A DNA stretch of 64,000 nucleotides, taken from contig JACKGF010000001.1 in NCBI GenBank assembly GCA_020632095.1, forward strand, positions 802,141-866,140, in the 5' to 3' direction. Positions 47,138 to 63,347 of the stretch are shown piece by piece. How positions within the stretch are numbered: position 1 is the stretch's first letter; every line of letters starts with the position of its first letter. The notes under the pieces were generated by a model, which worked only from the letters and a program-made list of their open reading frames with translations, was not told the origin of the DNA and searched no databases. A program made the translations under genes and the position numbers. Source of the DNA: Candidatus Nomurabacteria bacterium. Its GTDB lineage: Bacteria > Patescibacteriota > Minisyncoccia > Phycocordibacterales > UBA918.

Positions 47138-47356
47138 GTGATATGAAAACCAAGTAGAAAAAATTGTGAGGGGACTGAAAGACTATATAAAAGCCCTAGC
47201 TGCCGAAATTGGCTACTTAGGACTTATCGTAGCAAATTAAATTGCTATCTTATTATTCTGTTTTTTGTGATACTTTTTCTATTTCTTACAAGTTTTTGAT
47301 ATAAAACATTTATAACATTACTTCAGAAACAAACTCTGACACTCACTTGCTAGACG

Positions 47357-47722: not shown

Positions 47723-47893
47723 GAAGAACTCCTTTTCGGTTTTGAGCCCGAGAATTCGGAACTCGTCTTCAATAATAGCATGAAATCATGAAAAGTCAAG
47801 CGTGGAGCGTGGATTTTGGGGTGAGTTTAGTAAAACAGGGTGGGATTTTCTTAAGAAAATCCCACCCTGTTTTTGATCTCGGTTGCTTCGATT

Positions 47894-48502: not shown

Positions 48503-48670
48503 AAGTTTTCAAAATTAATGATTCTGCGACAATAAGCTCGGTGCAGACTCTAATCGTACTCAATTATCTCTATAAAAGCAAAATATATAATTCGAGGTAT
48601 TAGAGATTATGTTTTTTTGTCAGGATAAACAAAGTCATCCAACAAGGTCGAATGACTTTGTTGGATGGGG

Positions 48671-49084
48671 CTAAATCTTTAGGTGCATTTTTACCTCTTG
48701 TAGTGCAAGCCGATGAAATCCAAGCTGGATTTGATTCAGCGCATCTTCAATACTATGGAGTTCTACAAAAGGGTGTAGTTTTTTGTCGTCATCAAACATG
48801 CTGAAATTATTGACAAGCCAAATGGTGTACACATCGACAGCTTTCCTCGATGAATAGAGAATGCGGTCTTCGATGAGGAGAAAGCGATAAAGCTTTAATG
48901 TCTGGCCAGTTTCTTTATGCATCATGCGTCGTACAGCTCTCCTTCGGGTTTCTCCAAAACGACATGAGCAGATAGGAAGTCCAAGAAGTACCCTTTTGAG
49001 AGCCTTACCTTCATATCGCCTCAGAGTAACAACTTGATTGTCTGGTGTAAGGGCAACGACAATATTGAAATATCTGCTGGTCAC
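48671..49084 (-). CDS. hypothetical protein (possible degenerate NUDIX fold)
   Basis: GLPICSCRFGETRRRAVRRMMHKETG weakly resembles a NUDIX box. Confidence 0.3.
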   Translation of the reverse strand: MTSRYFNIVVALTPDNQVVTLRRYEGKALKRVLLGLPICSCRFGETRRRAVRRMMHKETGQTLKLYRFLLIEDRILYSSRKAVDVYTIWLVNNFSMFDDDKKLHPFVELHSIEDALNQIQLGFHRLALQEVKMHLKI

Positions 49085-49149
49085 GTGCTTCTCCTCGTTG
49101 ATTGAACTGGTGATAATGTACTTTGGTAGGGGATATTAGTCAAATATTT

Positions 49150-49301
49150 AAAACCGGTGCGAGACATTGTCTCGTACCGGTTTAACAATTCACTCTTTAG
49201 TTTACTTCTACTTCGATTCCAGCATCTTCAGCACTTCTTCATTCAGTAAGACTGATGCGACATACAGGCGGACGCGGTGTTCGTCGGCGTCTTTGAGGTG
49301 T
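49150..49301 (-). pseudogene. diverged duplicate of the tig 3' end plus its terminator (matches 53276..53437 at about 90%)
   Basis: aaaaccggtgcgagacattgtctcgtaccggtttaacaattcactctttagtttacttctacttcg... aligns with the region around the tig stop codon. Confidence 0.6.
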
Positions 49302-49302
49302 G

Positions 49303-50121
49303 TTAGGAGTTATACGTTTTAGCTAGTAGTTCTCGCAATCTAGCGTTCACGTCAAATTTTCTTGAGTTGTCTTTGATGAATTCAAACATCGATTTTATCA
49401 ATTTCTGGATTTCTGAATGGCGGATTTCAATAATGATTTCCTCGTTCATCGCGATTAAATAAACTGAGTTCTTAAACATCCAAATCTGCCCAGCGTGTTG
49501 AAAGTAGTCACCTGCAATTTCATGCGAAATAGCCGACCGACCTTCAAATTCTTCCGCCCACTTTTTACCCAGCAATTCAGTCTGCCTCTCAAACCAGCCA
49601 AAGGGCATAATGGTCTCCACAATAATCGCGTTCTTTTTGATGAATCTATTAATTTCATTCGTTTGCTCGGTACCAAAAACTTTTTCCCAACCAATCACGA
49701 CCACGTCTCCCTGAATCGCCAGTAACCGTTGTTCCTTATGGTCTTTGATGATTCCGTAAAGAAGCTGGCGGATGGCCTCACCACCGCGGTGAATCATAAC
49801 GGTTGAATCAGATAGTCCGTGCACCTCCTCAACTCTTTCATCTATATTGAATAGTTGTTTCTTCGTATTGTATAGATTTTGTTCAATATCTTTTTCCTTA
49901 GCCTGCGACCAATATTTTTTACCATTAACAATATTGGTTTTTACCAACCCTCTTTTGTGCAGCTTAACCAGAATCTCATAAATAGCGGGGCGGGATACTT
50001 TAATAGCCTTGTTAATCAACAGTGGGGTATTGTTTCCAGCCCGCAAAGCATCCAACACCTTAATCTCTTTGGTGGATAATCCCAGTAATTTTATCTGTTC
50101 AGCGTCTAATTTCATACCCAC
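49303..50121 (-). CDS. TrmB-family transcriptional regulator (paralog 3)
   Basis: Its HTH is INKAIKVSRPAIYEILVKLHKRGLV. Its C-terminal domain is closely similar to 39552..40523. Confidence 0.55.
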   Translation of the reverse strand: MGMKLDAEQIKLLGLSTKEIKVLDALRAGNNTPLLINKAIKVSRPAIYEILVKLHKRGLVKTNIVNGKKYWSQAKEKDIEQNLYNTKKQLFNIDERVEEVHGLSDSTVMIHRGGEAIRQLLYGIIKDHKEQRLLAIQGDVVVIGWEKVFGTEQTNEINRFIKKNAIIVETIMPFGWFERQTELLGKKWAEEFEGRSAISHEIAGDYFQHAGQIWMFKNSVYLIAMNEEIIIEIRHSEIQKLIKSMFEFIKDNSRKFDVNARLRELLAKTYNS

Positions 50122-50196
50122 ATAGTACCAATATTTGCATTATTGTAAAGTTTTACCTACATAGTTACAGATAAATCCACGGCTTAAAACATATTT

Positions 50197-51204
50197 TTCC
50201 CCCAGACACCTTTGAAGTAGGACAGCTATAAAGTAAATTAGCTGTCTATGAAAACATACAGACACATACAATTTGAGGAGCGTTTCGTAATTGAAAAGTT
50301 ATTGAACGCAGGGAGTTTGATCAGAGAAATAGCCATCTTCCTCAAACGTAGTCCCAACACCATCAGTCAGGAACTAAAGAAGAATAGGGTTAATGGAGTC
50401 TATGACGCCAAGCAAGCCCAACTAAAAGTGAACCAGCGTCGTTGGCGCGCTAAACGTCAGTGTCTCAAGGTGGCAATGGATAGTTTCCTAGTAAGCTTCG
50501 TAGAAGACAAACTAGAGCAGAAGTGGACCCCTAAACAAATCAGTGGACATCTCAAACGAGAGCTCGGTGTTACCTGTTCCGCCAAAGCTATATACAAGTT
50601 CATAGAAAGTCGTGGTCTGGAATATCGACTATTCTGGCGTTGGAACAAAAAGAAAAGTGGTCCGAAACGGACCACACATAAACCAGCTGATGATGGCCGT
50701 AAATATATAGATATTCGTCCTCTTGGTAGCCATGAGCTAGGTCACTATGAACTAGACTTCATTGTCTCTAAGTACAGTCCATACGTACTTCTAGTGGCTA
50801 CTGACCGTTTAACTAAATACAGCTTGGTACGTCAGTTACCCAATAGAAAACGCCACACAATCAGTGCAGCGTTCTCTAAAATGTTTAGCAATATTATAGT
50901 CAAGAGTATCACCACCGACAACGACATTGCATTCCGTCACTGGACGGAACTAGAACAAATCATACAGGCTCCAATCTATTTCTGCCACCCTTATCATTCT
51001 TGGGAGAAGGGACTGGTAGAGAATACTAATCGTTGGATTAGATGCTTTGTTCCAAAGCGGAGAGACATTGCGTCTGTTACTCAAGAAGAATTGAATGAGA
51101 TTCATACCTTCTTGAATGACCGACCGAAAGAGTGTATTGATTTTAGGATTTCGAGTGAGTATTATTATGAGCAATCTGTCCTACTTGAGGGGTAGCTGGA
51201 GGTT
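50197..51204 (+). mobile_element. IS30-family insertion sequence, copy 1 (about 1.0 kb)
   Basis: It is identical to 60664..61671 apart from 2-3 substitutions. It has imperfect terminal inverted repeats (..aagtaggacag..) and encodes a DDE transposase. Confidence 0.8.
50248..51195 (+). CDS. IS30-family DDE transposase
   Basis: 315 aa with an N-terminal HTH and a C-terminal integrase-core region (HPYHSWEKGLVEN). Confidence 0.85.
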   Translation: MKTYRHIQFEERFVIEKLLNAGSLIREIAIFLKRSPNTISQELKKNRVNGVYDAKQAQLKVNQRRWRAKRQCLKVAMDSFLVSFVEDKLEQKWTPKQISGHLKRELGVTCSAKAIYKFIESRGLEYRLFWRWNKKKSGPKRTTHKPADDGRKYIDIRPLGSHELGHYELDFIVSKYSPYVLLVATDRLTKYSLVRQLPNRKRHTISAAFSKMFSNIIVKSITTDNDIAFRHWTELEQIIQAPIYFCHPYHSWEKGLVENTNRWIRCFVPKRRDIASVTQEELNEIHTFLNDRPKECIDFRISSEYYYEQSVLLEG

Positions 51205-51282
51205 TTTCACACACTGAGCCTAAAACCACAGATAAATTGTACTGTCAACTAATTTTACCCTATACTATTCGCAGTTAGTTCT

Positions 51283-51720
51283 TTGACACGCGGAATAATT
51301 CCGCACCCGCGCCTCGGGGTACTGGGGTTGGAGACAAGCATGAGCAAGTACGAAAATGTCGAAAGCTTCAGCATTGAGGTTGATGGATTTGCGGGAGAGG
51401 TCAAAATGACCTATGTCCCAAACAGAATCGACTCCGACGGCTCCGCCTTCGGGCGCCACCTGAAGAGCTGTGAGGTCAGTCTCACCGACCCGAGCGGTCA
51501 GGTGTGGTGCGCGGAGTTGGGAGCGTCCGGAGGTGGCGGCGGATCCTGGAGCGCGGCGTCAACCGAATTCTTCTGGAAGACGGTTGAGCGAGTTGGTGGC
51601 ACCCTGGTACTGGGCGGAGATGAAGTGACCATCTTCGAGACATATAACGCTCGAAATGCGTTTTCTGGTGGGTGGTCAACCTCCCGCCGTGTAAAACACA
51701 TCGAGGTCGTTTTGGAGTAG
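51283..51720 (+). CDS. hypothetical protein in very high-GC DNA (about 65-70% GC); likely start at about 51340
   Basis: ORF with GC-rich codons and a Gly run (GASGGGGGSW). Confidence 0.3.
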   Translation: MTRGIIPHPRLGVLGLETSMSKYENVESFSIEVDGFAGEVKMTYVPNRIDSDGSAFGRHLKSCEVSLTDPSGQVWCAELGASGGGGGSWSAASTEFFWKTVERVGGTLVLGGDEVTIFETYNARNAFSGGWSTSRRVKHIEVVLE

Positions 51721-51895
51721 TCGGTCGCCGCGCTGAGCCCAGTCTGACAGCGCGCTAAAAATAAATGGGTGCTCGAGAGCGGGCAGATGGAGGGATAACA
51801 GACTAAATCCCCATCAAGAGCTTCTGGTAGATTAGCTTAGACTACCCGTTTGACCTTACGTGAAAGTGTCTTGGCGAGTTGAATGTTCACACCTC

Positions 51896-51944
51896 CTCGC
51901 CATCTTTATCAAGTTCATCAGTTAATGGTGAATTTGTAGAGATG
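51896..51944 (+). repeat. 49-bp direct repeat copy 1
   Basis: ctcgccatctttatcaagttcatcagttaatggtgaatttgtagagatg. It is repeated exactly at 52674..52722. Confidence 0.7.
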
Positions 51945-52472
51945 TTCTTTAAAAAATGACCGTAAGAGCCCAATTCTCAGGATATCTGAGAACCTACATG
52001 ACAGGTCAGGCAAATGTCATAAGGGTCGCAAACGCGATAGGGTCTAACAAGATTGTGTGGGTCTGTCCAAGACCATTACATGCGTAAGGCGCATGTATAT
52101 CTGACAAACCTCAGATTTTTTGAGGCAACAGATGATCTTGAAGGAGCCCCCTTCAGGATGCGTGTCCTGCTAGCGGACACAGGGACTATCGGTGCTTGAA
52201 CAAAACGCCGAGAAGGACACAGAAAAGGAAAGCATATTGTGTCCATGCATAATGGCGAGCAACACACCGCTCGCCATTTTCACCAAGTCCACAACCTATT
52301 TGCAGGTACGGCCGAGCTGAGGATCTCGAAAAACTCCTTGCTGTTCACGAGTGTGTACTCGTGCTGATGAGCTCAAAAGAGCGAAACAGAAAAGTTCTTT
52401 ACAACACCTTGGTGTGTGAAATCTGCCAGTTTACTAAATTGTTGGTAGATTCCACATACCAAGGAGAAACAA

Positions 52473-52646
52473 ATGGAAAAGATGCACATTGAAGTAGCTG
52501 GGGGCACGGTCATTCATTTGCCAGTTGCCGAGCTTCCTGCCGGAGCTCCTAGCGAGGAGTATCTCGCGCGACGGAAAGCAGCCGGGGCTAAGCTCCCGAT
52601 TCTTAATGTTCCATTACCAATTGAGGAGGGTCATGAGGATACATGA
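52473..52646 (+). CDS. small ORF (57 aa) with a strong RBS
   Basis: aaggagaaacaaATG gives MEKMHIEVAGGTVIHLPVAELPAGAPSEEYLARRKAAGAKLPILNVPLPIEEGHEDT. Confidence 0.3.
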   Translation: MEKMHIEVAGGTVIHLPVAELPAGAPSEEYLARRKAAGAKLPILNVPLPIEEGHEDT

Positions 52647-52673
52647 TAAGCAGTTCTGGCGAGCAACACACCG

Positions 52674-52722
52674 CTCGCCATCTTTATCAAGTTCATCAGT
52701 TAATGGTGAATTTGTAGAGATG
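52674..52722 (+). repeat. 49-bp direct repeat copy 2
   Basis: It is preceded by ggcgagcaacacaccgctcgccat. That 24-mer is also present at 52254..52277. Confidence 0.7.
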
Positions 52723-52741
52723 AATCTAAATGAAAGCTATT

Positions 52742-52782
52742 AAAAAACTGGTGTGATTCCGTAGGAATCACACCAGTTTTTT
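52742..52782. terminator. bidirectional terminator
   Basis: aaaaaactggtgtgattccgtaggaatcacaccagtttttt. It is near-identical in design to 56487..56528. Confidence 0.65.
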
Positions 52783-52876
52783 AACGTAATTCTAATGATA
52801 GGGTTTAGTATTAATTGTGCATAATAATGTCAGTGGCAGAGAGGATTTCTATATGATACATTGACGATGGAACGCT

Positions 52877-53257
52877 GTGTTCAGTGATACATCTTACACA
52901 AGACAAGGGGTGAATATGATGAGTAAAAAATTCGAGATCTTTCCGGATGGAACTACACCTACATCTACGATGGGTCCAGAAGAAACACGACGCTTTCTTG
53001 ACAGCTTTGCTGCAGATATGGATGCAGAAAAAGAACGAAAAGAGAGGCTTCGAAGGCCGTTCAAGATTGAAGTAGGTAAGTGCTTGTGTGGGGACCGCAT
53101 CATGTACTCGCGAAGTTTTAAGTGCACTGAAAGATTGTGCATTGGTGGTCCATCTGAGGAAGTTTGGGAATGCTACTGTGTGCATTGTGGACTGAGATAT
53201 CATAGAGACGCCAAGTTGATTGCACCTGTTATCCGGAGTTACTTAGACAGTTTGTGA
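52877..53257 (+). CDS. small Cys-rich protein (zinc-ribbon-like)
   Basis: GKCLCGDRIMYSRSFKCTERLCIGGPSEEVWECYCVHCG. The start is probably at about 52913. Confidence 0.4.
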   Translation: MFSDTSYTRQGVNMMSKKFEIFPDGTTPTSTMGPEETRRFLDSFAADMDAEKERKERLRRPFKIEVGKCLCGDRIMYSRSFKCTERLCIGGPSEEVWECYCVHCGLRYHRDAKLIAPVIRSYLDSL

Positions 53258-53333
53258 CAACGGGAGCAGACATCGAAAACCGGTGCGAGACAATGTCTCG
53301 CACCGGTTTAACAATTCACTCTTTAGTTTACTT

Positions 53334-54467
53334 CTACTTCGCTTCCAACATCTTCAGTACTTCTTCATTTAGTAGGACAGATGCTACATACAGGCGGACG
53401 CGGTGTTCGTCGGCGTCTTTGAAGCGGGTTAGGAGTTCCTTGGTTTGGGCGTCTAGTTGTTCTTTGTTTGGGATCACTTCTTCCTTCTTAGCGATTTCGT
53501 TGAGGATTAGTTGGAGTTTGGCGCGCATTTCGGCGGCTGGCTTCCATTCAGCCGCTAGGTCATCTTTAGTTTTCTTAATGTGGGTCAAATAGTCTTCCAT
53601 CTTCAACTCTGACCGATTGAGGTCTTCTTGCATTTGAGCGAACATTTGGTTGATTTCAGATTCAACTAAAATCTTTGGAAGTTTGATTTCGGTTTTGGCG
53701 ATGATGCCGTCGGTGATGTCAGCTCGATGCTTAGCGGCGTTAGTTTGTTTCTTTTCAATTTCGACGTGTTCTCGAAGTTTAGCTTTGAAATCAGCAACGG
53801 TTTCAAATTGTCCAGGTTGACCAAGCGTCTTCACGTACTCGTCAGTTAGTTCTGGTAGGGGAGCGTCTTTGTCGTCTTCTGCTTTAGCGGCTTCTGATTC
53901 GGGAGTTGGGAGGTCGGTGGCTCCGTCAGCCTCTGGAGCTTTTTGGTTGGCCAGATTTTGCATTCGCTCGTAGGCACGCTTTTGGGTCTGAATCTCCTTT
54001 ATTTTTTCATCCAGTTCAGCCTCGGTTACTTCATCACTTGGACGCTTTTTGTTTACCTCTTTTGCAATCGCTTCGTAGTCGGGCAAAGTAAATTTGGGAA
54101 TGATAGCCACGGTCGCGGTAAAGCCCAGGGGATTTTCGGGAGCAATTTTGGTAACTTCGATTTGGGGTTGTCCGATGGCTTCGATTTTGTGTTCTTCGAT
54201 AATGTGTGGGTAGGCGTGAGCGATAGCTCGTTCAGCCATTTCGGTCATGATAGCCATTTCTCCAATGTGCTTTTCTAACACAGGAGTAGGGATGTGACCT
54301 TTACGAAAACCATCCAAGGTAACGTTTTTGCCTAGAGCTACTACAGCTGCTGTGCGCTCACTTTGTAACTCAGCGTAAGGAAGTTCACCAGAAATCTTAA
54401 CTTGTGAATCTGGTAGTTCCTCAACGGTAAAAGCGGTTTTGTAATCTAAAGAATGTGAATGTGACAT
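53334..54467 (-). CDS. tig: trigger factor (short form without an obvious PPIase domain)
   Basis: It has the ribosome-binding motif LDGFRKGHIPTPVLEKHIG and the N-terminal and C-terminal chaperone arms. It is 377 aa. Confidence 0.75.
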   Translation of the reverse strand: MSHSHSLDYKTAFTVEELPDSQVKISGELPYAELQSERTAAVVALGKNVTLDGFRKGHIPTPVLEKHIGEMAIMTEMAERAIAHAYPHIIEEHKIEAIGQPQIEVTKIAPENPLGFTATVAIIPKFTLPDYEAIAKEVNKKRPSDEVTEAELDEKIKEIQTQKRAYERMQNLANQKAPEADGATDLPTPESEAAKAEDDKDAPLPELTDEYVKTLGQPGQFETVADFKAKLREHVEIEKKQTNAAKHRADITDGIIAKTEIKLPKILVESEINQMFAQMQEDLNRSELKMEDYLTHIKKTKDDLAAEWKPAAEMRAKLQLILNEIAKKEEVIPNKEQLDAQTKELLTRFKDADEHRVRLYVASVLLNEEVLKMLEAK

Positions 54468-54556
54468 AATGCTGGCCAGTGTACGAAACTGAGCGAAAAT
54501 TGCAACTTCGTTGAGTAAATATGTTATAAAAAGTCATTAATTACTAAGTTTGCATT

Positions 54557-55402
54557 ATGTTGGCAGTAAAAAATATTTTGACTGGAGAAGTGGGTGAGAT
54601 TGAGTCGGCCTATGTTGTAGTTGAGAGGAATTTGCCTTTGGTGATTTCTACTCCTCATAGTGGTAGGTGCGTTCTCGAAAAATATGCCGATCACTTTACC
54701 TTTGGAGATGGTTTTAGAGTCGATAATGATATGTATACTGGCGAGCTTTACCCTTTGGAACTTGGTAGTTCAATCTCTGGAAATCTTAGTCAACACCAAG
54801 TTAACATGAATCGTTCTTGGGAGTTGATTGAAGGGCGCGACCCTCTAATGACAATCTCTTTTTTATCTGAAGACGATATTTATACCAAACCATGGAGTGA
54901 TGTTGAGCGGGAGGAGTTGCGTCTGATGCACAAGGCTTACCATAGTGATTTGGCCCGCTTGATGAAACAGATGAAAGAAACATACGGATATGCATTATTG
55001 ATTGATTGTCACTCACTTAATTCCCGAGCGCTTAGTAATACACCAGACGCTGGTAGTATTGATAGAGCCGATTTCGTGATCGGTTCGTTGGATGGAGCTT
55101 CAGCTGATAGTCGGGTGGTAGATGTTTTTCATGAAGCGTTGGAGAAACAGGCGACTCCTCGGGGGCTAAAAGTAGTCAGAAATAATCCATATAAAGGTGG
55201 ATGGATAACAAAAACTTGGGCCCGTCCAGAAGAAGGATTCCATGTTTTGCAATTAGAAATCAAAAAGAAGATGTATATGTATGAGGGGATTGATGATGAT
55301 GGCGAGAAAGCTTTTCAAAAACGTGATAGTTTTGCCGATATACAAAAAGTCCTAGAAAAAGCTTTTAGAGAAACCCGTGATTTTGCGAGTACGATTTTGT
55401 AG
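54557..55402 (+). CDS. N-formylglutamate amidohydrolase-family protein
   Basis: ISTPHSGRCV and the overall size resemble FGase (PF05013). Moderate confidence. Confidence 0.5.
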   Translation: MLAVKNILTGEVGEIESAYVVVERNLPLVISTPHSGRCVLEKYADHFTFGDGFRVDNDMYTGELYPLELGSSISGNLSQHQVNMNRSWELIEGRDPLMTISFLSEDDIYTKPWSDVEREELRLMHKAYHSDLARLMKQMKETYGYALLIDCHSLNSRALSNTPDAGSIDRADFVIGSLDGASADSRVVDVFHEALEKQATPRGLKVVRNNPYKGGWITKTWARPEEGFHVLQLEIKKKMYMYEGIDDDGEKAFQKRDSFADIQKVLEKAFRETRDFASTIL

Positions 55403-55546
55403 GGAAGGATGACAAATGTTTAAATAGGCAACTAAGTGTTGCGAAGGGCATTAAAACATCACCATGAGCAATTGACAATGTCTGTTTCTTATGATATCAT
55501 CTAAAATGAGCTGTACTTCGTAACATAAACATTTGAAGGAGCTATC

Positions 55547-56407
55547 ATGACTCTTACTGAACTGCTGCGAATCGGCGACAAAGTCGTTTTCAAGGTTAGT
55601 CCCGACAATCGTCAGTGGGCTGATACCTACAGTAACGTACCTGATGGTACGGTGGGTGTAGTCTGCGGGTTTTACGACGCTGTGATGTACGAAAGCCGGG
55701 TGCAAGTCTTGGCGAATGAGCCTGGTGTTTATCACCGTAAGGGTGCGGTGTCGGTCTGGTTGGCAGATGGACGCATTGTTCCCGGTGGCTACAGTGTTGA
55801 AATGGTAGATAAGGAGGAAGAAAAACGCCGCGATGCACTTTATCGTGATGAGCGCGGCATCTTCTGTAGAAATAAGGACCAGGTTCGTCTCGGCGACTTG
55901 CCCCCTACAACTTTTTGGGAGGGAGACAAGGTTCGTGTTCGCTTTCCTAGCGAGGCTGAAGTACAAGAGATGACGATTCAGGGTATTGACTATCATCAAA
56001 TGCACGAAAAGCGTTGTGATGGTTCGCCTTACCCTTTCTACAGAGTCGGTTTCCAAGACGGACGTTCGATCGCCGCTGAGGAATCTTGGATTGAGCTCAT
56101 CGAAAGAGGTAATGTTTGGAAGTACTACCACCAAGAACCTCTCGCATTCGATAGCCTCAAAGACGAATCTGTCTTTTTCACGATGATTGGTCGCACGGAG
56201 GAAGTGCGTAATCCCGAAACTGACAATTATCGTTGGACCTTGGACCAGGCGCTTAAAGCCATCAAGGAAGGCCTCGGCCACGGTTTCACCAATTGGATGA
56301 TTCCGTTTTCTAACAATCAAAGAATTTCAGTAATCAAATTTCTCGATGAAGACCTCGGAAGTCGCGTGGCTGCCGAAACCCTCAAAGGGTTTGAAGTCAC
56401 CGCTTGA
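55547..56407 (+). CDS. hypothetical protein (about 48% GC)
   Basis: 286-aa ORF. No family recognised. Confidence 0.45.
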   Translation: MTLTELLRIGDKVVFKVSPDNRQWADTYSNVPDGTVGVVCGFYDAVMYESRVQVLANEPGVYHRKGAVSVWLADGRIVPGGYSVEMVDKEEEKRRDALYRDERGIFCRNKDQVRLGDLPPTTFWEGDKVRVRFPSEAEVQEMTIQGIDYHQMHEKRCDGSPYPFYRVGFQDGRSIAAEESWIELIERGNVWKYYHQEPLAFDSLKDESVFFTMIGRTEEVRNPETDNYRWTLDQALKAIKEGLGHGFTNWMIPFSNNQRISVIKFLDEDLGSRVAAETLKGFEVTA

Positions 56408-56486
56408 TTCACTCGCCGTCCAACCAGGAGGCTGTCTGGCTCTCGGGTTGGGCGGTTTCTTTTTTTTAGTTTTGGTTGATAAATAA

Positions 56487-56528
56487 TAAAACTGGTGGGA
56501 TTCACGGAGTGAATCCCACCAGTTTTTT
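56487..56528. terminator. bidirectional terminator
   Basis: aaaactggtgggattcacggagtgaatcccaccagtttttt. Confidence 0.65.
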
Positions 56529-56545
56529 GTTTTGAAGATTTAGTT

Positions 56546-56968
56546 CTATGGTGCTTCTTGTGCCGCTGCTTCTAATTCTGCGTCTATGGCGTTTAGTTCA
56601 GCGTCTAGGGAATCTAGATTGGTAGCTTCTAAGTCTGACTCAATAGCACTGATTTCGTCTGAGGTACTGACCGCTTGCATAGTTTCTACTTGAGCTTCGG
56701 CTGTAGTGCTCTCCGGCTCGTTATTCATTTCTGGAGTTGGACGTTCGATAGTAGGCATTACGTTCGGAGTATTGTTCATCTTGGCAAACCAATAATACAT
56801 TCCACCAAGAATTGCGATTAGAAGGATTGTTAGGATGAGTAAAACTGGACCGCCAACCACACTGCTTGGTTTTTCGGCTACATCTGGTTGGATGTCTGTA
56901 TTTTCTGGCATCTTCATTTCCTCGCCGGAAAAGTCTGGTGCTTGAATATCTTTGTTTTCTTCGTTCAT
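56546..56968 (-). CDS. hypothetical single-pass membrane protein with an acidic N- and C-terminus
   Basis: It has a TM helix (LLILTILLIAILGGMYYWFA). Confidence 0.4.
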   Translation of the reverse strand: MNEENKDIQAPDFSGEEMKMPENTDIQPDVAEKPSSVVGGPVLLILTILLIAILGGMYYWFAKMNNTPNVMPTIERPTPEMNNEPESTTAEAQVETMQAVSTSDEISAIESDLEATNLDSLDAELNAIDAELEAAAQEAP

Positions 56969-56986
56969 ATAATAGTAGTTAGGTTA

Positions 56987-57772
56987 TTAAGAAGGTTCTT
57001 GATTAGCCTTGGCTTCAGCAGCAGCCTCTTTGAGTGCAGTGACAGATGCGCGGAGTTCAGTGTGGGCAGTTTTGATGTGGTTTCTAATGCTGGTGAAACT
57101 GGCTTTGGCTGTTTCCCAGCCGGCTCTAGCGTCTTCGCTACTGACAGCAGTGTTAACTGTTGTGTCTATGGTAGCAATCTCGGCTTTAGCGGAGTTGATA
57201 GAAGCTTTGGCTGAATTTAATGACGCAGTTGCTTTGGATGTATCCACTCCAATTTCTTCTAGTCGCTGCATGCGGGTTTCGATTCGAGCGATAATATTAT
57301 CAATCCGAGCGATAACGGCATCCATCCGGTTGCTCATATTGGCAGCCAAGTTGGTGATACGTTCTTGAGTGCGAGCTTGCAGAGCAACTTTTCTTTCAGT
57401 AATTCGGTCTTGCATTTCTACTCGATTTTCTTGAAATTGGGCTTGAGCTTCGGTCTGGTTCTCGATGCGATCGGCTTGACCTGCGGCCCGCTTTGCTTCC
57501 ATCTCTTCACGTTTTTCTTGGAATTGCTCCTGCATGTCAGTCTTATTTTGTTCAAGGGCGGCTCGTCTTGCTTCTTTGTCTTGACTATTAGCGCTTGTAC
57601 TAGTTTCTGAGGAAACAGAAACATCCTCCTCTCCAGTAGCTGAAGCAGAGACTGATGTCTCGGTCTCGATACTCGCTGAGTTTGTTTCTTCTTGAGCAAA
57701 AGCTATACTCGCTCCAGTTAAAAGAGAGATAATAAGCAATGTCGATATAGTTGGTTGTGATAATGATTTCAT
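56987..57772 (-). CDS. secreted coiled-coil protein
   Basis: It has a signal peptide (LLIISLLTGASIAFAQ) and long heptad and Ala/Glu/Arg-rich repeats. Confidence 0.45.
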   Translation of the reverse strand: MKSLSQPTISTLLIISLLTGASIAFAQEETNSASIETETSVSASATGEEDVSVSSETSTSANSQDKEARRAALEQNKTDMQEQFQEKREEMEAKRAAGQADRIENQTEAQAQFQENRVEMQDRITERKVALQARTQERITNLAANMSNRMDAVIARIDNIIARIETRMQRLEEIGVDTSKATASLNSAKASINSAKAEIATIDTTVNTAVSSEDARAGWETAKASFTSIRNHIKTAHTELRASVTALKEAAAEAKANQEPS

Positions 57773-57870
57773 AATTTTATTCAGTACATTTAGTTAAAAT
57801 TGGCTGATGGTAAAAGTATAGCGCCGCTTCGGAACATCCGAAGCGGCGCTATACACAGGGTGAGTAATGG

Positions 57871-58395
57871 TTAAGATTTCTTTGGCTCCTTGTACATCTC
57901 ACAACTCTTGATAAAGGCTTCTTTGGCGGCTGTGGCACCACCCCAAGCCCCAACTGAAACCTCTTTATTCTGCACTTTTTTGTAGGTTTCAAAGAAGTGA
58001 GTAGTTTCTTTAATAAAGTGTTTGTTGAGGTCTGCAACATCTTTAAGGTCATCAAAGCGGGGGTCATCGACCGGTACAGCGATAACTTTGTCGTCTCGGT
58101 CACCACCATCAATCATTTCCATAATAGCGACCGGGCGAGCTTTGACCAAGATACCAGGTGCTAGTGGGTAGGTGGTGAGTAAAACAACGTCAAGAGCGTC
58201 ACCGTCGTCAAATAGAGTTTGCGGTACAAAACCATAGTCAAAGGGGTAGTCTTGCGCAGTATGCATGACACGATCAAGGGCGATCAAGCCAGTTTCCTTA
58301 TCAATCTCGTATTTGTTTTTTGAAAATTTAGGGATTTCGACAATAACATTCATTTCATCAGCGGTTCCGGCTGGTACGTCGTGTAGTAGGTTCAT
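57871..58395 (-). CDS. ppa: inorganic pyrophosphatase
   Basis: EIPKFSKNKYEIDKETG...DGDALDVVLL. Confidence 0.9.
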   Translation of the reverse strand: MNLLHDVPAGTADEMNVIVEIPKFSKNKYEIDKETGLIALDRVMHTAQDYPFDYGFVPQTLFDDGDALDVVLLTTYPLAPGILVKARPVAIMEMIDGGDRDDKVIAVPVDDPRFDDLKDVADLNKHFIKETTHFFETYKKVQNKEVSVGAWGGATAAKEAFIKSCEMYKEPKKS

Positions 58396-58447
58396 ATTAT
58401 TTATGGGTTATATATTACGGTAAATATCCAGTATCCTAACTTGTTGG

Positions 58448-58502
58448 AGGAGAAATGTAAAAAGGTCGGCGCCGAAAGGCGCCGACCTTTTACATTTCTC
58501 CT
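58448..58502. terminator. extended bidirectional terminator hairpin
   Basis: ggagaaatgtaaaaaggtcggcgcc-gaaa-ggcgccgaccttttacatttctcc. Confidence 0.65.
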
Positions 58503-58509
58503 CAAATCA

Positions 58510-59958
58510 CTATTTAGTATCTTCTTTTTCTTTAGTTTCTTCCTCAGTTATTTCTTCAGCTGATTCTTCAAGTTGTTCTTCTGCTTCTTCTGGAGTGTCT
58601 ACCTCATCCTCTTCTTCCATGTCTGTAGATACATCACGATCTTTTGTTTCGTCAGATTCTTCCAAAATATCTTCGATATCTGGATTGGTAGTAGTAGCCT
58701 CCTCACTTTCTAGTATCTCATCATCAGCTCCAACTTCAGTATCGGCGGGAGCTTCGAGAGAGATATTTCCTTCTGCATCAGCTTCGGCTAGTTCTTCACC
58801 AGTATTGGCAGAGATAATATCAATCTTCCAGCCGGTAAGTTTAGCAGCCAGCCGGACGTTTTGTCCGCCTCGACCAATAGCGAGAGATTGTTGGTCGTTT
58901 GCTACTTCGGCTATTGCATGACCGCGTTCGCCGGTTTCTGCATTTGGTTCTGACTGGATAGTTACACTCATTACTTGAGCTGGAGAAAGTGAATCCTCAA
59001 GGAATTCAACTATGTCTGGAGACCATTCAATAATGTCGATTTTTTCACCGCCCAGTTCACTCATAACGGTCGATACACGGACTCCTCTTTGTCCGACCAG
59101 TGAACCAACAGGGTCGATGTGTTCGTCAACAGCGTGCACAGCAATCTTAGTTCGAGCGCCAGCTTCACGAGCCACCGCTTTTACCTCAACTGCGCCACTT
59201 TGTAGCTCCGGTGCTTCGATGGTGAATAGATTTACCAAGAAGTCTGGGTGTGAGCGCGACAACTTAAGAAAGATCCCGCGAGGGGTTTCCTCTACTGCCA
59301 ATAAGAGTGCGCGGATTCTTTCACCCGGTTTGAAGCGTTCGCCAGGAATTTGTTCTTCGTAGGGCATGATGGCTGTTACGCGACCAAGGTCGACGTAGAG
59401 ATTACCACGTTCAAAGCGTTGGGCTTGACCGATTACAATGTCGCCTGCCTTTTGTCCAAATTCGGCCAAAGCGGCTTCTTTTTCGGCTTCGCGAATTTTC
59501 TGCATAATCACTTGCTTGGCGGTTTGGGCGGCAATGCGGCCAAAGTCGTCTTTTGGTTCTAGTGGGAAAGTGAGTTCATCACCAACTTGCACGTCTTTCT
59601 TAATCATGCGAGCAGTGTTAATCATGATGTGCTTTTCTTCTTCAAAACGCACTTTCTTCACACCGTCTTCACTCTCTTCCTCTTCATCAGTTTCGTCAAT
59701 TATCTCTTCACCATTTTCGTCTAGCTCTGGTTCTGGCTTGAGCATAGACTCATCAACCACGATTTTTACTTGGTTGAAATTGGTAGTACCAGTTTCCATG
59801 TCGAATTCAGCCGTGATGATTTGACCACGCTTCCCGAATTCTTTTTTGTAGGCGGTGGCGAGTGATTGAGCGATGGCATCAATCATTTTTTCTCGGGGAA
59901 TCCCGCGTTCTTCTTCCATTTCGGTTAAGACCGAGTTAATTACTTTTAGATCAAACAT
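58510..59958 (-). CDS. nusA: transcription termination/antitermination factor NusA (acidic C-terminal tail)
   Basis: It has an N-terminal domain, an S1 domain and two KH domains, with the typical MFDLKVINSVLTEMEEERGIPREKMIDAIAQSLATAYKK. Confidence 0.9.
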   Translation of the reverse strand: MFDLKVINSVLTEMEEERGIPREKMIDAIAQSLATAYKKEFGKRGQIITAEFDMETGTTNFNQVKIVVDESMLKPEPELDENGEEIIDETDEEEESEDGVKKVRFEEEKHIMINTARMIKKDVQVGDELTFPLEPKDDFGRIAAQTAKQVIMQKIREAEKEAALAEFGQKAGDIVIGQAQRFERGNLYVDLGRVTAIMPYEEQIPGERFKPGERIRALLLAVEETPRGIFLKLSRSHPDFLVNLFTIEAPELQSGAVEVKAVAREAGARTKIAVHAVDEHIDPVGSLVGQRGVRVSTVMSELGGEKIDIIEWSPDIVEFLEDSLSPAQVMSVTIQSEPNAETGERGHAIAEVANDQQSLAIGRGGQNVRLAAKLTGWKIDIISANTGEELAEADAEGNISLEAPADTEVGADDEILESEEATTTNPDIEDILEESDETKDRDVSTDMEEEDEVDTPEEAEEQLEESAEEITEEETKEKEDTK

Positions 59959-60159
59959 ACCATTTTTGTTATTTTGCGAAGCAACTCATTGTATTGAGTT
60001 TTATCATTGGTGATGGATTGCTTCGTCTCTTCTAATATTTAATTGTCTACATTATTCACTTTACGAAGACTGCTCGGCCAAAAGGCCGAGCAGTCATCTT
60101 CAGATATATAAACTATACTCTCGCGTCGGGTAAATGTCAAAAAATAGGTAGGATTGGGT

Positions 60160-60194
60160 GGCTGGGCTGGGGCGCGCAGCGCCCCAGCCCAGCC
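60160..60194. repeat. GC-rich palindrome ggctgggctggggcgcgcagcgccccagcccagcc inside a high-GC fragment
   Basis: A related copy, ggctggggcgtgcagcgctccagcc, lies at 61762..61786 on the other side of IS30 copy 2. Confidence 0.6.
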
Positions 60195-60663
60195 AATACC
60201 TTACCTCTTGGATTTTAAAAACCAATCCAAAATTTAGAATGAAAATGGCCGCCTTCCCTGAAGGGTTGGCGGCCGGTTGCGTCCGTGCTGGCGGTTTGTT
60301 GACCGCTAGCTAGGGACTGGTTGAAAGGACATTCGCCTCCGAAGCCTGAGCGATGTAGTCGCGGGGCAAACTTCGGGGCGGGCGATCAGAAGTCCATCAG
60401 CTACCGCAGGTGCCGTCGATCGGCTGGCGGAAGGCGATGTTTCTGGTGCTACTTCGCGAGCCCAGGTCGAATCAGATGTTGATATCGACCGGCGTGGCCG
60501 CGTCAGCCGCTGGCGTGCTTGCCGGCGCCGGACAGGAAGGAAAGGTAATAACAATTGTTGTCTCCGGTGGTCACCGGCGGTGTTCGCTTGCTATTCATGC
60601 GTCGCTCCTTGTTTGTACTTCGTTTCAAAAACGTCGCTTAACGATGGTCAGCTTCCTCTCCAT

Positions 60664-61671
60664 TCCCCCCAGACACCTTTGAAGTAGGACAGCTATAAAG
60701 TAAATTAGCTGTCTATGAAAACATACAGACACATACAATTTGAGGAGCGTTTCGTAATTGAAAAGTTATTGAACGCAGGGAGTTTGATCAGAGAAATAGC
60801 CATCTTCCTCAAACGTAGTCCCAACACCATCAGTCAGGAACTAAAGAAGAATAGGGTTAATGGAGTCTATGACGCCAAGCAAGCCCAACTAAAAGTAAGT
60901 CAACGTCGTTGGCGGGCTAAACGTCAGTGTCTCAAGGTGGCAATGGATAGTTTCCTAGTGAGCTTCGTAGAAGACAAACTAGAGCAGAAGTGGACCCCTA
61001 AACAAATCAGTGGACATCTCAAACGAGAGCTCGGTGTTACCTGTTCCGCCAAAGCTATATACAAGTTCATAGAAAGTCGTGGTCTGGAATATCGACTATT
61101 CTGGCGTTGGAACAAAAAGAAAAGTGGTCCGAAACGGACCACACATAAACCAGCTGATGATGGCCGTAAATATATAGATATTCGTCCTCTTGGTAGCCAT
61201 GAGCTAGGTCACTATGAACTAGACTTCATTGTCTCTAAGTACAGTCCATACGTACTTCTAGTGGCTACTGACCGTTTAACTAAATACAGCTTGGTACGTC
61301 AGTTACCCAATAGAAAACGCCACACAATCAGTGCAGCGTTCTCTAAAATGTTTAGCAATATTATAGTCAAGAGTATCACCACCGACAACGACATTGCATT
61401 CCGTCACTGGACGGAACTAGAACAAATCATACAGGCTCCAATCTATTTCTGCCACCCTTATCATTCTTGGGAGAAGGGACTGGTAGAGAATACTAATCGT
61501 TGGATTAGATGCTTTGTTCCAAAGCGGAGAGACATTGCGTCTGTTACTCAAGAAGAATTGAATGAGATTCATGCCTTCTTGAATGACCGACCGAAAGAGT
61601 GTATTGATTTTAGGATTTCGAGTGAGTATTATTATGAGCAATCTGTCCTACTTGAGGGGTAGCTGGAGGTT
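60664..61671 (+). mobile_element. IS30-family insertion sequence, copy 2
   Basis: It is identical to copy 1 except for a few substitutions. Confidence 0.8.
60715..61662 (+). CDS. IS30-family DDE transposase (copy 2)
   Basis: It differs from the copy-1 protein at 2 residues (N/S and T/A). Confidence 0.85.
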   Translation: MKTYRHIQFEERFVIEKLLNAGSLIREIAIFLKRSPNTISQELKKNRVNGVYDAKQAQLKVSQRRWRAKRQCLKVAMDSFLVSFVEDKLEQKWTPKQISGHLKRELGVTCSAKAIYKFIESRGLEYRLFWRWNKKKSGPKRTTHKPADDGRKYIDIRPLGSHELGHYELDFIVSKYSPYVLLVATDRLTKYSLVRQLPNRKRHTISAAFSKMFSNIIVKSITTDNDIAFRHWTELEQIIQAPIYFCHPYHSWEKGLVENTNRWIRCFVPKRRDIASVTQEELNEIHAFLNDRPKECIDFRISSEYYYEQSVLLEG

Positions 61672-61925
61672 CGTCGGACGTGCGTATATCCTAGCATATC
61701 TAAAATATTTGTCAAGCATTTTTTGAGGGCTTGAAATAAGGGGTTTTGGGGGGAGGGTTGAGGCTGGGGCGTGCAGCGCTCCAGCCCTGCGGGGTTTTGA
61801 CAGTGTTTTTGGAGGTAAAAGTTGGTGGGGTGATTGGCTTGGTATAACAGATAGGGGGAGGAGCTTTGCTCCTCCCCCTATTACTGTCTACAAAAAACGT
61901 GCAGAAAAAATTAACACCCGCTACT

Positions 61926-63347
61926 TCAAAGTTTTTCAATCAACATCGTGTTGGTGGCGCCAGAGGTTCCAAAAGGGATGCCGGCGCCGAGGATGAAACT
62001 GTCGCCAGTTTGAGCTAGATTGCGATCAAGGATGATTTTACGAGCCAGCTTTCTGGCGGTGTTAAGGTCTTTTACTCTTTTAATTAAAACCGGTTCACAA
62101 CCAAACACCACTAGCATTTTGTTGAATGTTTCCTGCTGGGGGGTGAGAACTAAGATTGGTGTGCTTGGTCGGTGACGAGCAATCATGCGGCCAGTGTGAC
62201 CGCTTTCGCTCAAGGCGACTATTACTTTGGCATTGGTCGATTTAACACTGCGGGCAATTGAGAGGGTAACAGCGTCACAGACGGTTAAGTTGGAAGACTC
62301 CCAATTTTTCCTGTGGTCAGCAAAGTACTGATCATTTTCTACTTCAAAAGCCACTTGCGACAATATCTCCACTGCTCGTTCTGGATGTTCGCCAACGGCT
62401 GATTCGTCGGAGAGCATTACCGCGTCGGTACCATCGAGTATGGCGTTGGCGATGTCAGTCACTTCGGCACGGGTCGGGGTAGTTGCTACGCGCATGGAGT
62501 CGAGCATTTGGGTGGCGGTAATCACTGGTTTGCCAGCATGGTTACAAAGTTGAATAATTTTCTTTTGTAGCAACGGGACTTTTTCCAGAGGCATTTCAAT
62601 CGCGAGGTCGCCACGGGCCACCATGATCACATCGGAAGCAGCGATGATTTCTTCCAGATTTTCAATCGCTTGTTTGGTTTCGATTTTGGCCACAATCGCT
62701 ACATCCCTTTGCTTGCCAACCAGTTTGCGCAATAGATGAATATCGGCCGCGGTGCGGACAAAAGATAAAGTAACAAAATCAACGTTCTGAGCGAGACCAA
62801 ACTTCAAATCTTTACGGTCTTTAGGAGTGAGGGAAGAAATAGAAAGGTTGCCGTCTGGAATATTGACCCCGCGCCGTCCACGGATCGTACCACCGGCCAA
62901 AATGGTGGTATGAATTTCCGTGTCAGTTATTTTGTCCACCACCAATTTCTGCTTCCCGTCGTTCAGGTAAATATTCATACCGACTTCAACTTCTTGGGGA
63001 AGTTGACTGTAGTTTACAAACACTCGTTCCACCGTGCTGGCGCAGGTTTCTGTGGTGAGGGTGAGTTTACAGCCTTTAATTAAAGTGACTTCTTCGGTAG
63101 TAAAATTACCGATGCGAATTTTGGGGCCGGACAAATCTTGCAAGATAGCCAACGGTCGCTTGGTGCGCTTAGCGGCTGCGCGAGCGTTTTTGATAACTGC
63201 CGCATGGGTCTCATGGTCGCCATGACTCATATTGACTCGCGCCACCGTCAAGCCGTTTTCTAACATTTGTTCGATAGTAGAAACTGATGAAGATTTCGGT
63301 CCCAACGTAGCTACAATCTTAGTCTTAATTTTGAAAGTCTTGTTCAT
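61926..63347 (-). CDS. pyk: pyruvate kinase
   Basis: KIVATLGP...MSHGDHETH... Confidence 0.9.
   Translation of the reverse strand: MNKTFKIKTKIVATLGPKSSSVSTIEQMLENGLTVARVNMSHGDHETHAAVIKNARAAAKRTKRPLAILQDLSGPKIRIGNFTTEEVTLIKGCKLTLTTETCASTVERVFVNYSQLPQEVEVGMNIYLNDGKQKLVVDKITDTEIHTTILAGGTIRGRRGVNIPDGNLSISSLTPKDRKDLKFGLAQNVDFVTLSFVRTAADIHLLRKLVGKQRDVAIVAKIETKQAIENLEEIIAASDVIMVARGDLAIEMPLEKVPLLQKKIIQLCNHAGKPVITATQMLDSMRVATTPTRAEVTDIANAILDGTDAVMLSDESAVGEHPERAVEILSQVAFEVENDQYFADHRKNWESSNLTVCDAVTLSIARSVKSTNAKVIVALSESGHTGRMIARHRPSTPILVLTPQQETFNKMLVVFGCEPVLIKRVKDLNTARKLARKIILDRNLAQTGDSFILGAGIPFGTSGATNTMLIEKL

Follow-up and report, generated by a model that had tools for sequence, protein, structure and literature searches.

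Two copies of a small IS30-family element lie beside predicted promoters in a Candidatus Nomurabacteria genome

We propose that two direct copies of an insertion sequence (IS) in a ~1-Mb Patescibacteria genome labelled Candidatus Nomurabacteria arose by two separate insertions of one IS30-family element, each just downstream of a promoter, and that the element itself chose these sites. We consider this explanation, taken as a whole, to be likely. Each copy would have entered alone and in the manner usual for the family, in which a DDE transposase acts and a staggered cut leaves a 3-bp duplication. Both would have come to lie a short way past a promoter, in accessory DNA specific to the lineage, one at each edge of a nusA-ppa-x-x-tig-clpP core. 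The right end of the IS would lie toward a sigma70-type promoter, 18 to 19 nt past the -10 box and at about +9 to +11 relative to the start of transcription. Firing antisense into the transposase gene, that promoter would be separated from the gene that it formerly served.

Results

The IS and its two copies

Self-BLAST of the window, the 64,000-nt stretch of DNA analyzed here, revealed one 1,009-bp direct repeat (50196-51204 and 60663-61671, 99.2% identity) and no third copy of the IS within the window. Protein records point to five or more copies on the 997-kb source contig as a whole (locus tags H6784_). The identity of 11 outside contigs to the IS ends precisely at CCCCCAGACA...TAGCTGGAGG, which fixes the length of the element at 1,004 bp. 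The repeat that a first-pass annotation had placed at 50197-51204 and 60664-61671 is real, but the 2 to 3 extra bases that it included on each side are target duplications, and the IS proper is shorter (Table 1). The left inverted repeat (IRL) is complementary to the right end at 21 of 27 positions, with the core AAGTAGGACAG, which is kept in IS relatives of 65 to 75% identity. The transposase stop codon falls within the right inverted repeat (IRR), and the final 22 nt of IRR, CTACTTGAGGGGTAGCTGGAGG, were found exactly in 85 metagenome contigs. Neither solo inverted repeats nor further remnants of the IS were detected in the window or in the tig loci of relatives.

Table 1. Features of the IS copies, their flanks, and the interval between them (window coordinates).
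Feature	Position	Strand	Remarks
TrmB-like gene	49303-50121	-	cut off by copy 1 from promoter-like site
Target-site duplication, copy 1	50196-50198 and 51203-51205		TTT
IS copy 1	50199-51202	+	1,004 bp; rarer allele (transposase N62, T287)
IRL, copy 1	50199-50225	+	27 bp; identical sequence at 60666-60692 in copy 2
Transposase gene, copy 1	50248-51195	+	315 aa; NCBI record MCB9814583.1, "IS30 family transposase"
IRR, copy 1	51176-51202	+	identical sequence at 61643-61669 in copy 2
Interval between copies	51203-60665		9,463 bp
Promoter-like site at copy 1	51220-51248	-	TTGACA (51248-51243), 17-nt spacer, TGG-TTTTAG (51228-51220)
GC-rich 126-aa ORF	51340-51720		island DNA in interval
Cys-rich ORF	52877-53257		island DNA in interval
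tig	53334-54467	-	Pfam
N-formylglutamate amidohydrolase-like (FGase-like) gene	54557-55402	+	Pfam
ppa	57871-58395	-	Pfam
nusA	58510-59958	-	Pfam
GC-rich 0.5-kb stretch	60200-60660		after nusA
Target-site duplication, copy 2	60663-60665 and 61670-61672		TTC
IS copy 2	60666-61669	+	1,004 bp; common allele (S62, A287)
Transposase gene, copy 2	60715-61662	+	NCBI record MCB9814593.1
Promoter at copy 2	61688-61715	-	TTGACA-16-TAGGAT with upstream TG; predicted

The element is a normal member of the IS30 family, as both copies had been called, and is already annotated so in the public record. Its transposase scored 199.7 bits against NCBIfam NF033563 (IS30 family transposase; cutoff, 80) over profile positions 1 to 266 of 267; the IS481, IS21, and IS630 models all scored far under their cutoffs. 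Pfam domains HTH_38 (residues 4 to 46) and rve (integrase-core DDE, residues 163 to 251) are present. The predicted DDE residues D170, D224, and E258 lie in the motifs HYELDF, TTDND, and LVENTN at spacings of 53 and 33 and are probably catalytic. Profile, domains, 27-bp inverted repeats, and a 3-bp target duplication all agree with the family. Like IS30 of Escherichia coli and its relatives IS1655, ISApl1, and ISAba125, this IS has a single transposase with an N-terminal HTH domain, a DDE core in which 33 residues separate the second D from the E, and the inverted repeats (20 to 30 bp in the family) and short target duplication (2 to 3 bp) of that group, but at 1,004 bp and 315 aa it is smaller than IS30 (~1.2 kb, 383 aa). 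IS30 transposes by a copy-out-paste-in route via a circle or joined inverted repeats (PMC9333248), and family membership suggests that this IS does the same.

The two copies differ at seven positions, not the 2 to 3 nt counted in the first-pass annotation. Six of the seven fall within IS nt 232 to 295, and two change amino acids of the transposase (N62S and T287A). The 1,004 bp of copy 1 recur without mismatch in one outside contig (L001), and copy 2 is 100% identical to the IS in 11 others (L002 to L011 and L075). Other samples and another MAG contain a 100% identical IS, next to at least 11 right flanks that differ from one another; GCA_020632175.1 has the identical IS in a stretch that shares no genes with the window. 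Target duplications of 2 to 3 bp had been proposed as something to look for, and 3-bp duplications were found at all six IS sites that could be reconstructed (TTT, TTC, GAT, ATA, GCT, and TAA), including both copies in the window. IS alleles combine a small set of variable sites in shuffled arrangements. These sequence data support the earlier suggestions that the element is mobile and that its copies exchange sequence.

For neither copy was an empty-site allele recovered. Exact-protein look-ups with nusA, tig, pyk, the TrmB-like gene, and the GC-rich ORF returned solely contigs with the same IS junctions, and related MAGs lack the islands and hence a homologous empty site. Because no empty allele was recovered, we infer insertion from the duplications and from synteny.

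A predicted promoter faces the right end of the IS

We compared 80 distinct right flanks of this IS and of relatives that are 65 to 75% identical to it, applying a strict promoter rule to 75 of them; all promoters discussed here are predictions from sequence alone. A predicted sigma70-type promoter, with the consensus TTGAC-17-TGnTATAAT, points into the right end of the IS. GTCAA, which is TTGAC on the promoter strand, lies at flank positions 41 to 43 in 42 of the 80 flanks and occurs once elsewhere in the first 60 nt. Under the strict rule, the -10 box ends at position 18 (25 flanks) or 19 (9 flanks) in 34 of 75, against 11 matches at other positions of the same strand (one at position 16), 9 on the other strand, and a background of ~0.1 match per position. 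None of 20 left flanks had a promoter in register. The association with predicted promoters is thus specific in both position and orientation, and the pattern is common to relatives with only 65 to 75% DNA identity. The preference is a strong one without being absolute: neither box is in register in ~10 of the 80 right flanks. A few insertions fall inside genes (L006/L008, in a Vut_1 gene). Short-read contigs supplied many of the flanks and can be shown to mix left with right flanks over the repeat; this leaves the right-flank statistics unaffected but limits the pairing of the two sides.

Both copies in the window follow the pattern. The promoter-like site at copy 1, read from the sequence, is in register with a weak -10 box (TTTTAG), and the predicted promoter at copy 2, with 10 of 12 matches in a promoter scan, is also in register, its -10 box ending 19 nt from the IS. 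An antisense terminator-like hairpin in the IS (50675-50657) was considered as an adaptation to incoming transcription and rejected, as it is not conserved in relatives.

The first-pass annotation had suggested that the IS arrived with the GC-rich DNA beside both copies or targets such DNA. The patches are there (GC of 0.54 to 0.59 at ~51200 to 51800 and 0.57 at ~60200 to 60600, against a window mean of 0.424), but neither suggestion held: the IS boundaries exclude this DNA, the GC of the IS (0.425) is that of the genome (0.424), and flanks elsewhere have a GC of 0.33 to 0.47. The one exception, the left flank of L004 (0.55), is copy 2's own left flank. With high-GC targeting set aside, the feature common to the insertion sites is a promoter facing the right end.

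We infer that this association reflects target choice rather than later selection, and we lean toward an asymmetric reader of the promoter, which could be RNA polymerase or sigma factor already bound there or else an additional DNA-binding surface on the transposase. A different reading of the same flanks, possible but in our judgment doubtful, is that the transposase recognizes its own DNA motif, for example an inverted-repeat-like sequence, and that this motif only looks like a promoter. The targets of IS30 itself fall into two classes defined by sequence, hot spots that are nearly palindromic and the inverted repeats of IS30 (PMC9333248), and the -35 box TTGACA has GACA in common with the inverted-repeat core GGACAG. 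Across the flanks, we found no trade-off between the strength of the -35 box and the extended -10 TG motif; such compensation would have favored functional promoters over a sequence motif. However, two boxes, a canonical 17-nt spacer, and a TG extension together match the specificity of the sigma70 holoenzyme, and the signal is asymmetric and reaches 46 nt from the cut, at a fixed distance and in one orientation, whereas the hot spot of IS30 is symmetric, centered, and near-palindromic. Centered symmetric targets are usual for DDE transposases generally. On inspection, nothing similar within the IS ends is in register with the boxes, and we rejected mimicry of the inverted repeat by the target on that ground.

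Target choice by the element also accounts for the flanks better than survivorship, in which insertion is near random and only copies in 5' leaders persist in a gene-dense genome. These genomes are indeed compact, and both copies in the window sit beside accessory genes, where a loss of expression would be tolerable. Yet a peak 1 to 2 nt wide, at a fixed distance from the -10 box and in a single orientation, is beyond what selection would produce, and insertions elsewhere in leaders or upstream of promoters are absent, so we regard survivorship as improbable.

The enclosed genes belong to a conserved block

As first described, the copies enclose a 9.5-kb segment that contains tig, ppa, and nusA together with hypothetical ORFs, the named genes being identified by Pfam; several ORFs in the interval had no family match. 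In relatives, the genes (T2SSE-like gene)-nusA-ppa-orf261-orf140-tig-clpP-RNase Y are collinear. Synteny was compared with 26 related loci, and nusA-ppa-orf-orf-tig-clpP forms a single conserved block in 20 or more related genomes. The related MAGs lack pyk, the GC-rich pieces, and the IS there. The block extends beyond copy 1 to clpP and RNase Y, and both IS copies lie in lineage-specific islands at the edges of this conserved core. Within the interval, the FGase-like gene and orf286 form an insert (54557-56407) that is followed, before ppa, by two conserved small ORFs. The GC-rich 126-aa ORF had no match in Pfam, NCBIfam, or PHROG and just 3 homologues among 5.8 billion proteins, and 60130-60665 yielded no Rfam match of note and no phage DNA match. 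A predicted hammerhead ribozyme (52326-52406, + strand) is located in an ORF-poor stretch of island DNA between the 126-aa ORF and the Cys-rich ORF.

The arrangement had also been read as a possible composite transposon, with both copies and the intervening 9.5 kb having arrived, or being able to move, as a single unit. The segment is indeed flanked by an intact and apparently active IS in two direct copies, as in the IS30-family composite transposons ISApl1-mcr-1 and ISAba125-blaNDM, and IS30-family elements are known to join the ends of distant copies (PMC9333248). Here, however, each copy has its own matching duplication (TTT/TTT and TTC/TTC) in place of a single outer one, the outer flanks differ (TTT and TTC), and the segment is ancestral core genome and not imported cargo: nusA-ppa-orf261-orf140-tig has the same order and orientation in 20 or more related loci without the IS, and the block runs on past copy 1. 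We therefore consider a composite transposon very improbable. Going by gene order, the pair brackets housekeeping genes by accident of position, and nusA, ppa, and tig were not carried in by the IS. Deletion or amplification of the interval between the direct repeats is possible in principle; deletion would probably be lethal, as nusA and ppa would be lost.

The least probable alternative of all is an assembly artefact, named in the first-pass annotation as what would refute it, in which a single IS was placed twice or the repeat was mis-joined: chimeras across the 1-kb repeat are frequent among short-read contigs of this IS, but contigs from independent metagenome assemblies cross all four junctions (copy 1 left, L046 and L047; copy 1 right, L016, L044, and L045; copy 2 left, L013, L012, and L004; copy 2 right, L043), which rules it out, and the seven differences between copies, the independent occurrence of both alleles in other samples, the matching duplications at each copy, and the gene order collinear with relatives through both copies contradict it as well. 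The 997-kb source contig of the window was also counted in favor of both copies. The only alternative junction seen, in L004, is indistinguishable from a short-read chimera.

Discussion

We searched the literature for IS30-family elements that target promoters and for IS30 in Patescibacteria, with no result. The IS pair itself is ordinary, and promoter specificity appears to be new, and apparently unreported, for the IS30 family. We saw small IS30-family elements of this lineage in Patescibacteria as well as in numerous metagenomes from fresh water, groundwater, and digesters, and the samples included activated sludge; related transposases number ~3,300 clusters. Whether this large lineage as a whole selects sigma70-type promoters, in a fixed orientation and ~10 bp past the transcription start, is in our view evenly balanced. 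Such a lineage may read promoter-bound RNA polymerase or the DNA where polymerase leaves the promoter. A variable patch at transposase residues 62 to 91, which separates the two HTH regions, is a candidate for the part that goes with the trait.

The sole precedent that we found for promoter-directed insertion is that of TnGBS and ISLre2/ISKra4 (Mutator-like, p-MULT transposases), which insert 15 to 17 bp upstream of the -35 box, a trait found through position-specific enrichment of predicted promoters in their flanks (PMC3942029). The association reported here was detected in the same way, and it likewise consists of position- and orientation-specific sigma70-type promoters beside one inverted repeat. 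Those elements belong to another transposase superfamily, however, and leave the promoter connected to its gene, whereas this IS, with its IS30 transposase, sits downstream of the -10 box (~+10), where the promoter points into the IS and is severed from its gene. Assignment to the TnGBS/ISLre2 type was rejected on these grounds.

Two other elements offer partial parallels. IS1630 of Mycoplasma fermentans, also of the IS30 family, selects a transcription signal and not a palindromic hot spot, but it targets terminator hairpins and makes long duplications (~19 to 26 bp), in contrast to the promoter and 3 bp seen here. The yeast retroelement Ty3 integrates within a few bases of the transcription start and so resembles this IS in its proximity to the start site; it differs as a eukaryotic element at RNA polymerase III genes, where it is directed by the transcription machinery, a role that is only putative for this IS.

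The pair itself is of little import, and the housekeeping genes that it brackets are not mobilized by it. If the lineage as a whole does select promoters, bacteria would have a second case of promoter-directed transposition, one that is distinct in mechanism. Promoter-directed DDE insertion is on record for one other superfamily, in which it was termed unusual and takes place upstream of the promoter, and a second lineage with the opposite geometry would be a natural counterpart for comparing the ways in which transposases read such signals. The finding also bears on the persistence of mobile elements in very compact genomes. To our knowledge, there is little direct promoter mapping for uncultured Patescibacteria, and as a practical by-product the insertion sites would mark promoters and approximate transcription starts in these organisms.

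Identity of the IS30 family copies

Comparison of the window with itself gave a single long repeat in direct orientation (50196-51204 and 60663-61671; 99.2% identity) and no third copy within the 64 kb. Exact-protein look-ups retrieved eleven outside contigs with the same element in other contexts. All 11 match it from CCCCCAGACA at the left end to TAGCTGGAGG at the right end and no further, which makes the IS 1,004 bp long. Its 315-aa product scores 199.7 bits against NCBIfam NF033563, IS30 family transposase (cutoff, 80), and contains an N-terminal HTH_38 domain and an integrase core; D170, D224, and E258, the last two separated by 33 residues, are likely the catalytic residues. The IS ends in 27-bp imperfect inverted repeats (21/27 matching). 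Target-site duplications, which the first-pass annotation proposed looking for, are 3 bp long at copy 1 (TTT/TTT), at copy 2 (TTC/TTC), and at four more sites reconstructed from outside contigs (GAT, ATA, GCT, and TAA), a length that fits the IS30 family. On every criterion that could be tested, the element belongs to this family, whose members move by copy-out-paste-in via joined inverted repeats (PMC9333248); by analogy, the present IS may do the same.

Both proteins are already in the public record as "IS30 family transposase" (MCB9814583.1 and MCB9814593.1; Candidatus Nomurabacteria bacterium, 997,259-bp contig), and several further accessions in the same 90% protein cluster suggest that the source genome has at least five IS copies and that another MAG, GCA_020632175.1, has one. 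More than 3,200 protein clusters match at E ≤ 1e-20, which makes this a very large subfamily. The best 120 of these clusters are 73 to 99% identical, nearly all 313 to 319 aa long, and mostly from contigs of ~1 to 1.4 kb, which is typical for repeats in short-read assemblies.

The copies differ at 7 positions, not the 2 to 3 nt first counted; six lie within IS nt 232 to 295, and two amino acid changes (N62S and T287A) result. Across the window and other samples, allele differences cluster in a ~90-nt patch (IS nt 232 to 320) coding for residues 62 to 91, between two helix-turn-helix regions. The protein cluster contains alleles that combine N/S62, MVS/LIR at 77 to 83, Q/K91, and T/A287 in shuffled ways, which indicates that copies exchange sequence by recombination or gene conversion and makes the earlier wording, "recent or homogenised," a fair one.

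An assembly artifact can be rejected, because both alleles are present independently in other samples, contigs of other samples cross all four IS junctions (copy 1 left, L046 and L047; copy 1 right, L016, L044, and L045; copy 2 left, L013, L012, and L004; copy 2 right, L043), the duplications match, and the genes on either side of each copy are collinear with those of relatives. With the IS as a 1-kb repeat, short-read contigs mix up its left and right flanks, so an alternative right junction in L004 is not readable as a true rearrangement.

Features of the window discussed in the text
Feature	Position	Strand	Remarks
470-aa ORF	19474-20886	+	just downstream of tRNA-Arg (18916-18989)
tRNA-Gly(tcc)	43363-43435		L046 6976-7035
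clpP	47894-48502		left of IS pair
162-nt duplicate	49150-49311 and 53276-53437		
TrmB-like regulator	49303-50121		left of IS pair
IS copy 1	50199-51202		1,004 bp; identity limits versus outside contigs
Variable patch, IS nt 232-320	50430-50518 and 60897-60985		
Predicted promoter at copy 1	51248-51220		TTGACA-17-TGGTTTTAG; weak -10 box
57-nt direct repeats	51888-51944 and 52667-52722		third, partial copy at 52253-52288
Putative hammerhead ribozyme	~52338-52396	+	type III
tig	53334-54467	-	between copies
N-formylglutamate amidohydrolase-like gene	54557-55402	+	between copies
Same gene plus 286-aa ORF	54557-56407		opposite strand; GC ~0.50
ppa	57871-58395	-	between copies
nusA	58510-59958	-	between copies
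Predicted nusA promoter	60140-60112		
GC-rich stretch	60130-60660		GC 0.57
Palindrome, perfect stem	60159-60195		37 nt; in GC-rich stretch
Second hairpin	60246-60275		in GC-rich stretch
41-aa ORF	60503-60628		AAGGAG ribosome-binding site; in GC-rich stretch
IS copy 2	60666-61669		1,004 bp; identity limits versus outside contigs
Predicted promoter at copy 2	61715-61688		TTGACA-16-TAGGAT
Pyruvate kinase (pyk)	61926-63347		right of IS pair

Two insertions in an ancestral gene block

Self-comparison, gene families, and NF033563 agree with the first description of direct, near-identical IS30 family copies bracketing tig, ppa, and nusA. The interval is 9,463 bp, and several ORFs inside it have no family match. 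The observation of the pair is thus correct; as a pair, it is ordinary and already annotated.

The pair had also been proposed as a possible composite transposon. With the trigger factor (tig) protein as query, species-representative genomes yielded 26 related Patescibacteria loci (34 to 84% protein identity), in which the order is T2SSE-like gene-nusA-ppa-orf261-orf140-tig-clpP-RNase Y, on one strand with short spacers; orf261 and orf140 are conserved small ORFs. Relative to this order, the source genome has three lineage-specific additions: pyk and 0.5 kb of GC-rich DNA in the space from the T2SSE-like gene to nusA, housing copy 2; the amidohydrolase-like gene and the 286-aa ORF between orf140 and tig; and ~4 kb between tig and clpP, housing copy 1. 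Since the order is conserved in relatives, the bracketed housekeeping genes are ancestral. The conserved block runs past copy 1, and each copy has its own duplication, which together leave the composite transposon unsupported and point to two independent insertions rather than an imported unit. The direct repeats could in principle recombine; a deletion would cost nusA and ppa and would be expected to be lethal.

GC-rich patches do lie beside both copies, as first reported (GC 0.54 to 0.59 and 0.57, versus a window mean of 0.424). The further idea that the IS arrived with or targets such DNA finds no support, as the GC of the IS (0.425) matches the genome's own and flanks of the identical IS elsewhere are at 0.33 to 0.47; the exception, the left flank in L004 (0.55), is copy 2's own left flank. 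The GC-rich stretch between copy 2 and the nusA promoter holds two hairpin-forming sequences and only short ORFs, and it has no Rfam or phage DNA match.

Other features around tig-clpP and elsewhere

The tig 3' end and its terminator hairpin are duplicated as a 162-nt sequence (92.6% identical, copies 4.1 kb apart); most of the differences are synonymous when read in frame with tig. The duplicates flank an island with the TrmB-like gene, copy 1, a GC-rich ORF, the hammerhead stretch, and a Cys-rich ORF; they look like what an insertion arriving with a tig 3' end of its own would leave behind. The 4.1-kb stretch lacks an integrase.

The tig-clpP spacer also contains a predicted canonical type III hammerhead ribozyme, which reads, in order, CUGU-U, CACGAGU-GUGU-ACUCGUG, CUGAUGA, GCUC-AAAA-GAGC, GAA, and ACAG. 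In Rfam it has just a weak partial HH9 match (21.8 bits). Its 24-nt core plus stem II is exact in 27 IMG/VR viral contigs, with stem I covarying, and the same spacer of a related MAG has a homologue in which stems I and III carry compensatory changes (L022 12229-12321). Direct repeats of 57 nt (49 nt exact) bound a 779-bp unit, inside which lie the hammerhead and a 57-aa ORF preceded by a good ribosome-binding site; both repeats and the third, partial copy contain a hairpin, GGCGAGC-N8-GCTCGCC. The unit is missing from L012 (sample ERZ27248697) and present in L016, L044, and L045, and it looks like a presence/absence polymorphism.

The 286-aa ORF has no family match; every related locus examined has orf140 next to tig. 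Contig L046 matches window positions 43363 to 50337 at 100% identity and departs exactly at the tRNA-Gly(tcc) gene, where it encodes a large serine recombinase (Resolvase/Recombinase/Zn_ribbon_recom), suggesting a strain-variable integrated element. The 470-aa ORF has no assigned function; the 2 kb around it have a GC of 0.50 to 0.55 and are probably another acquired island.

Predicted promoters at the insertion sites

Wherever the identical IS was found, it lies shortly upstream of a gene on the opposite strand, and a -10-like hexamer stands in the right flank at a fixed offset. The final 22 nt of the IS, used to scan metagenome contigs, picked out 85 loci of this IS or relatives (997 to 1,027 bp; 65 to 75% identical in DNA); with the earlier loci and the window, these gave 80 distinct right flanks. 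Counted outward from the IS, their information content has only two peaks, ATTATAcCA at positions 18 to 26 and GTCAA at 42 to 46. Read on the opposite strand, these are TTGAC, a 17-nt spacer, and TGnTATAAT, a predicted sigma70-type promoter with an extended -10 box directed into the IS. Exact GTCAA falls at positions 41 to 43 in 42 of the 80 flanks; within the first 60 nt it has one further occurrence in the whole set.

Under a strict rule (at least 4/6 per hexamer and 9/12 in total, the second base of the -10 box being A and its sixth T), this box ends at position 18 in 25 flanks or 19 in 9 flanks (34/75). Outside these positions, only 11 matches lie on the same strand over 120 nt, including one at position 16; the opposite strand has 9. 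The 20 distinct left flanks all lack a promoter in register, and many show the ribosome-binding site and start codon of the downstream gene. A C at flank position 10 (G on the promoter strand) would fit a transcription start at about position 10 to 11, placing the 3-bp target at roughly +9 to +11. Copies 1 and 2 both conform to the pattern. The flanks showed no -35/extended -10 compensation.

Probable target choice and its possible consequences

We infer that the promoter association reflects target choice, because selection after insertion cannot yield a peak 1 to 2 nt wide in a single orientation. The signal is asymmetric, reaches 46 nt from the cut, and matches holoenzyme specificity (two boxes, 17-nt spacer, and TG extension). 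These properties favor an asymmetric reader of the promoter, which may be RNA polymerase or sigma factor bound there or a transposase surface dedicated to DNA binding.

Known IS30 targets are nearly palindromic hot spots or the element's own inverted repeats (PMC9333248). We found no report of promoter targeting in the IS30 family, or of IS30 elements in Patescibacteria, in the part of the literature that could be searched. As a precedent, TnGBS, ISLre2, and ISKra4 insert at sigma-A promoters, 15 to 17 bp upstream of the -35 box and with their right inverted repeat adjoining the promoter; the authors of that work call such targeting unusual (PMC3942029). In contrast to the present IS, these elements have the opposite insertion geometry and belong to another superfamily with a different transposase family.

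Insertion would separate a promoter from its gene by 1 kb, and the cut-off promoter would transcribe antisense over the transposase gene, which could damp transposition. The genes affected in the window appear to be accessory (the TrmB-like regulator and the small ORFs of the GC-rich stretch), and nusA would retain its own predicted promoter. Promoter-directed, oriented insertion is the part that deserves follow-up.
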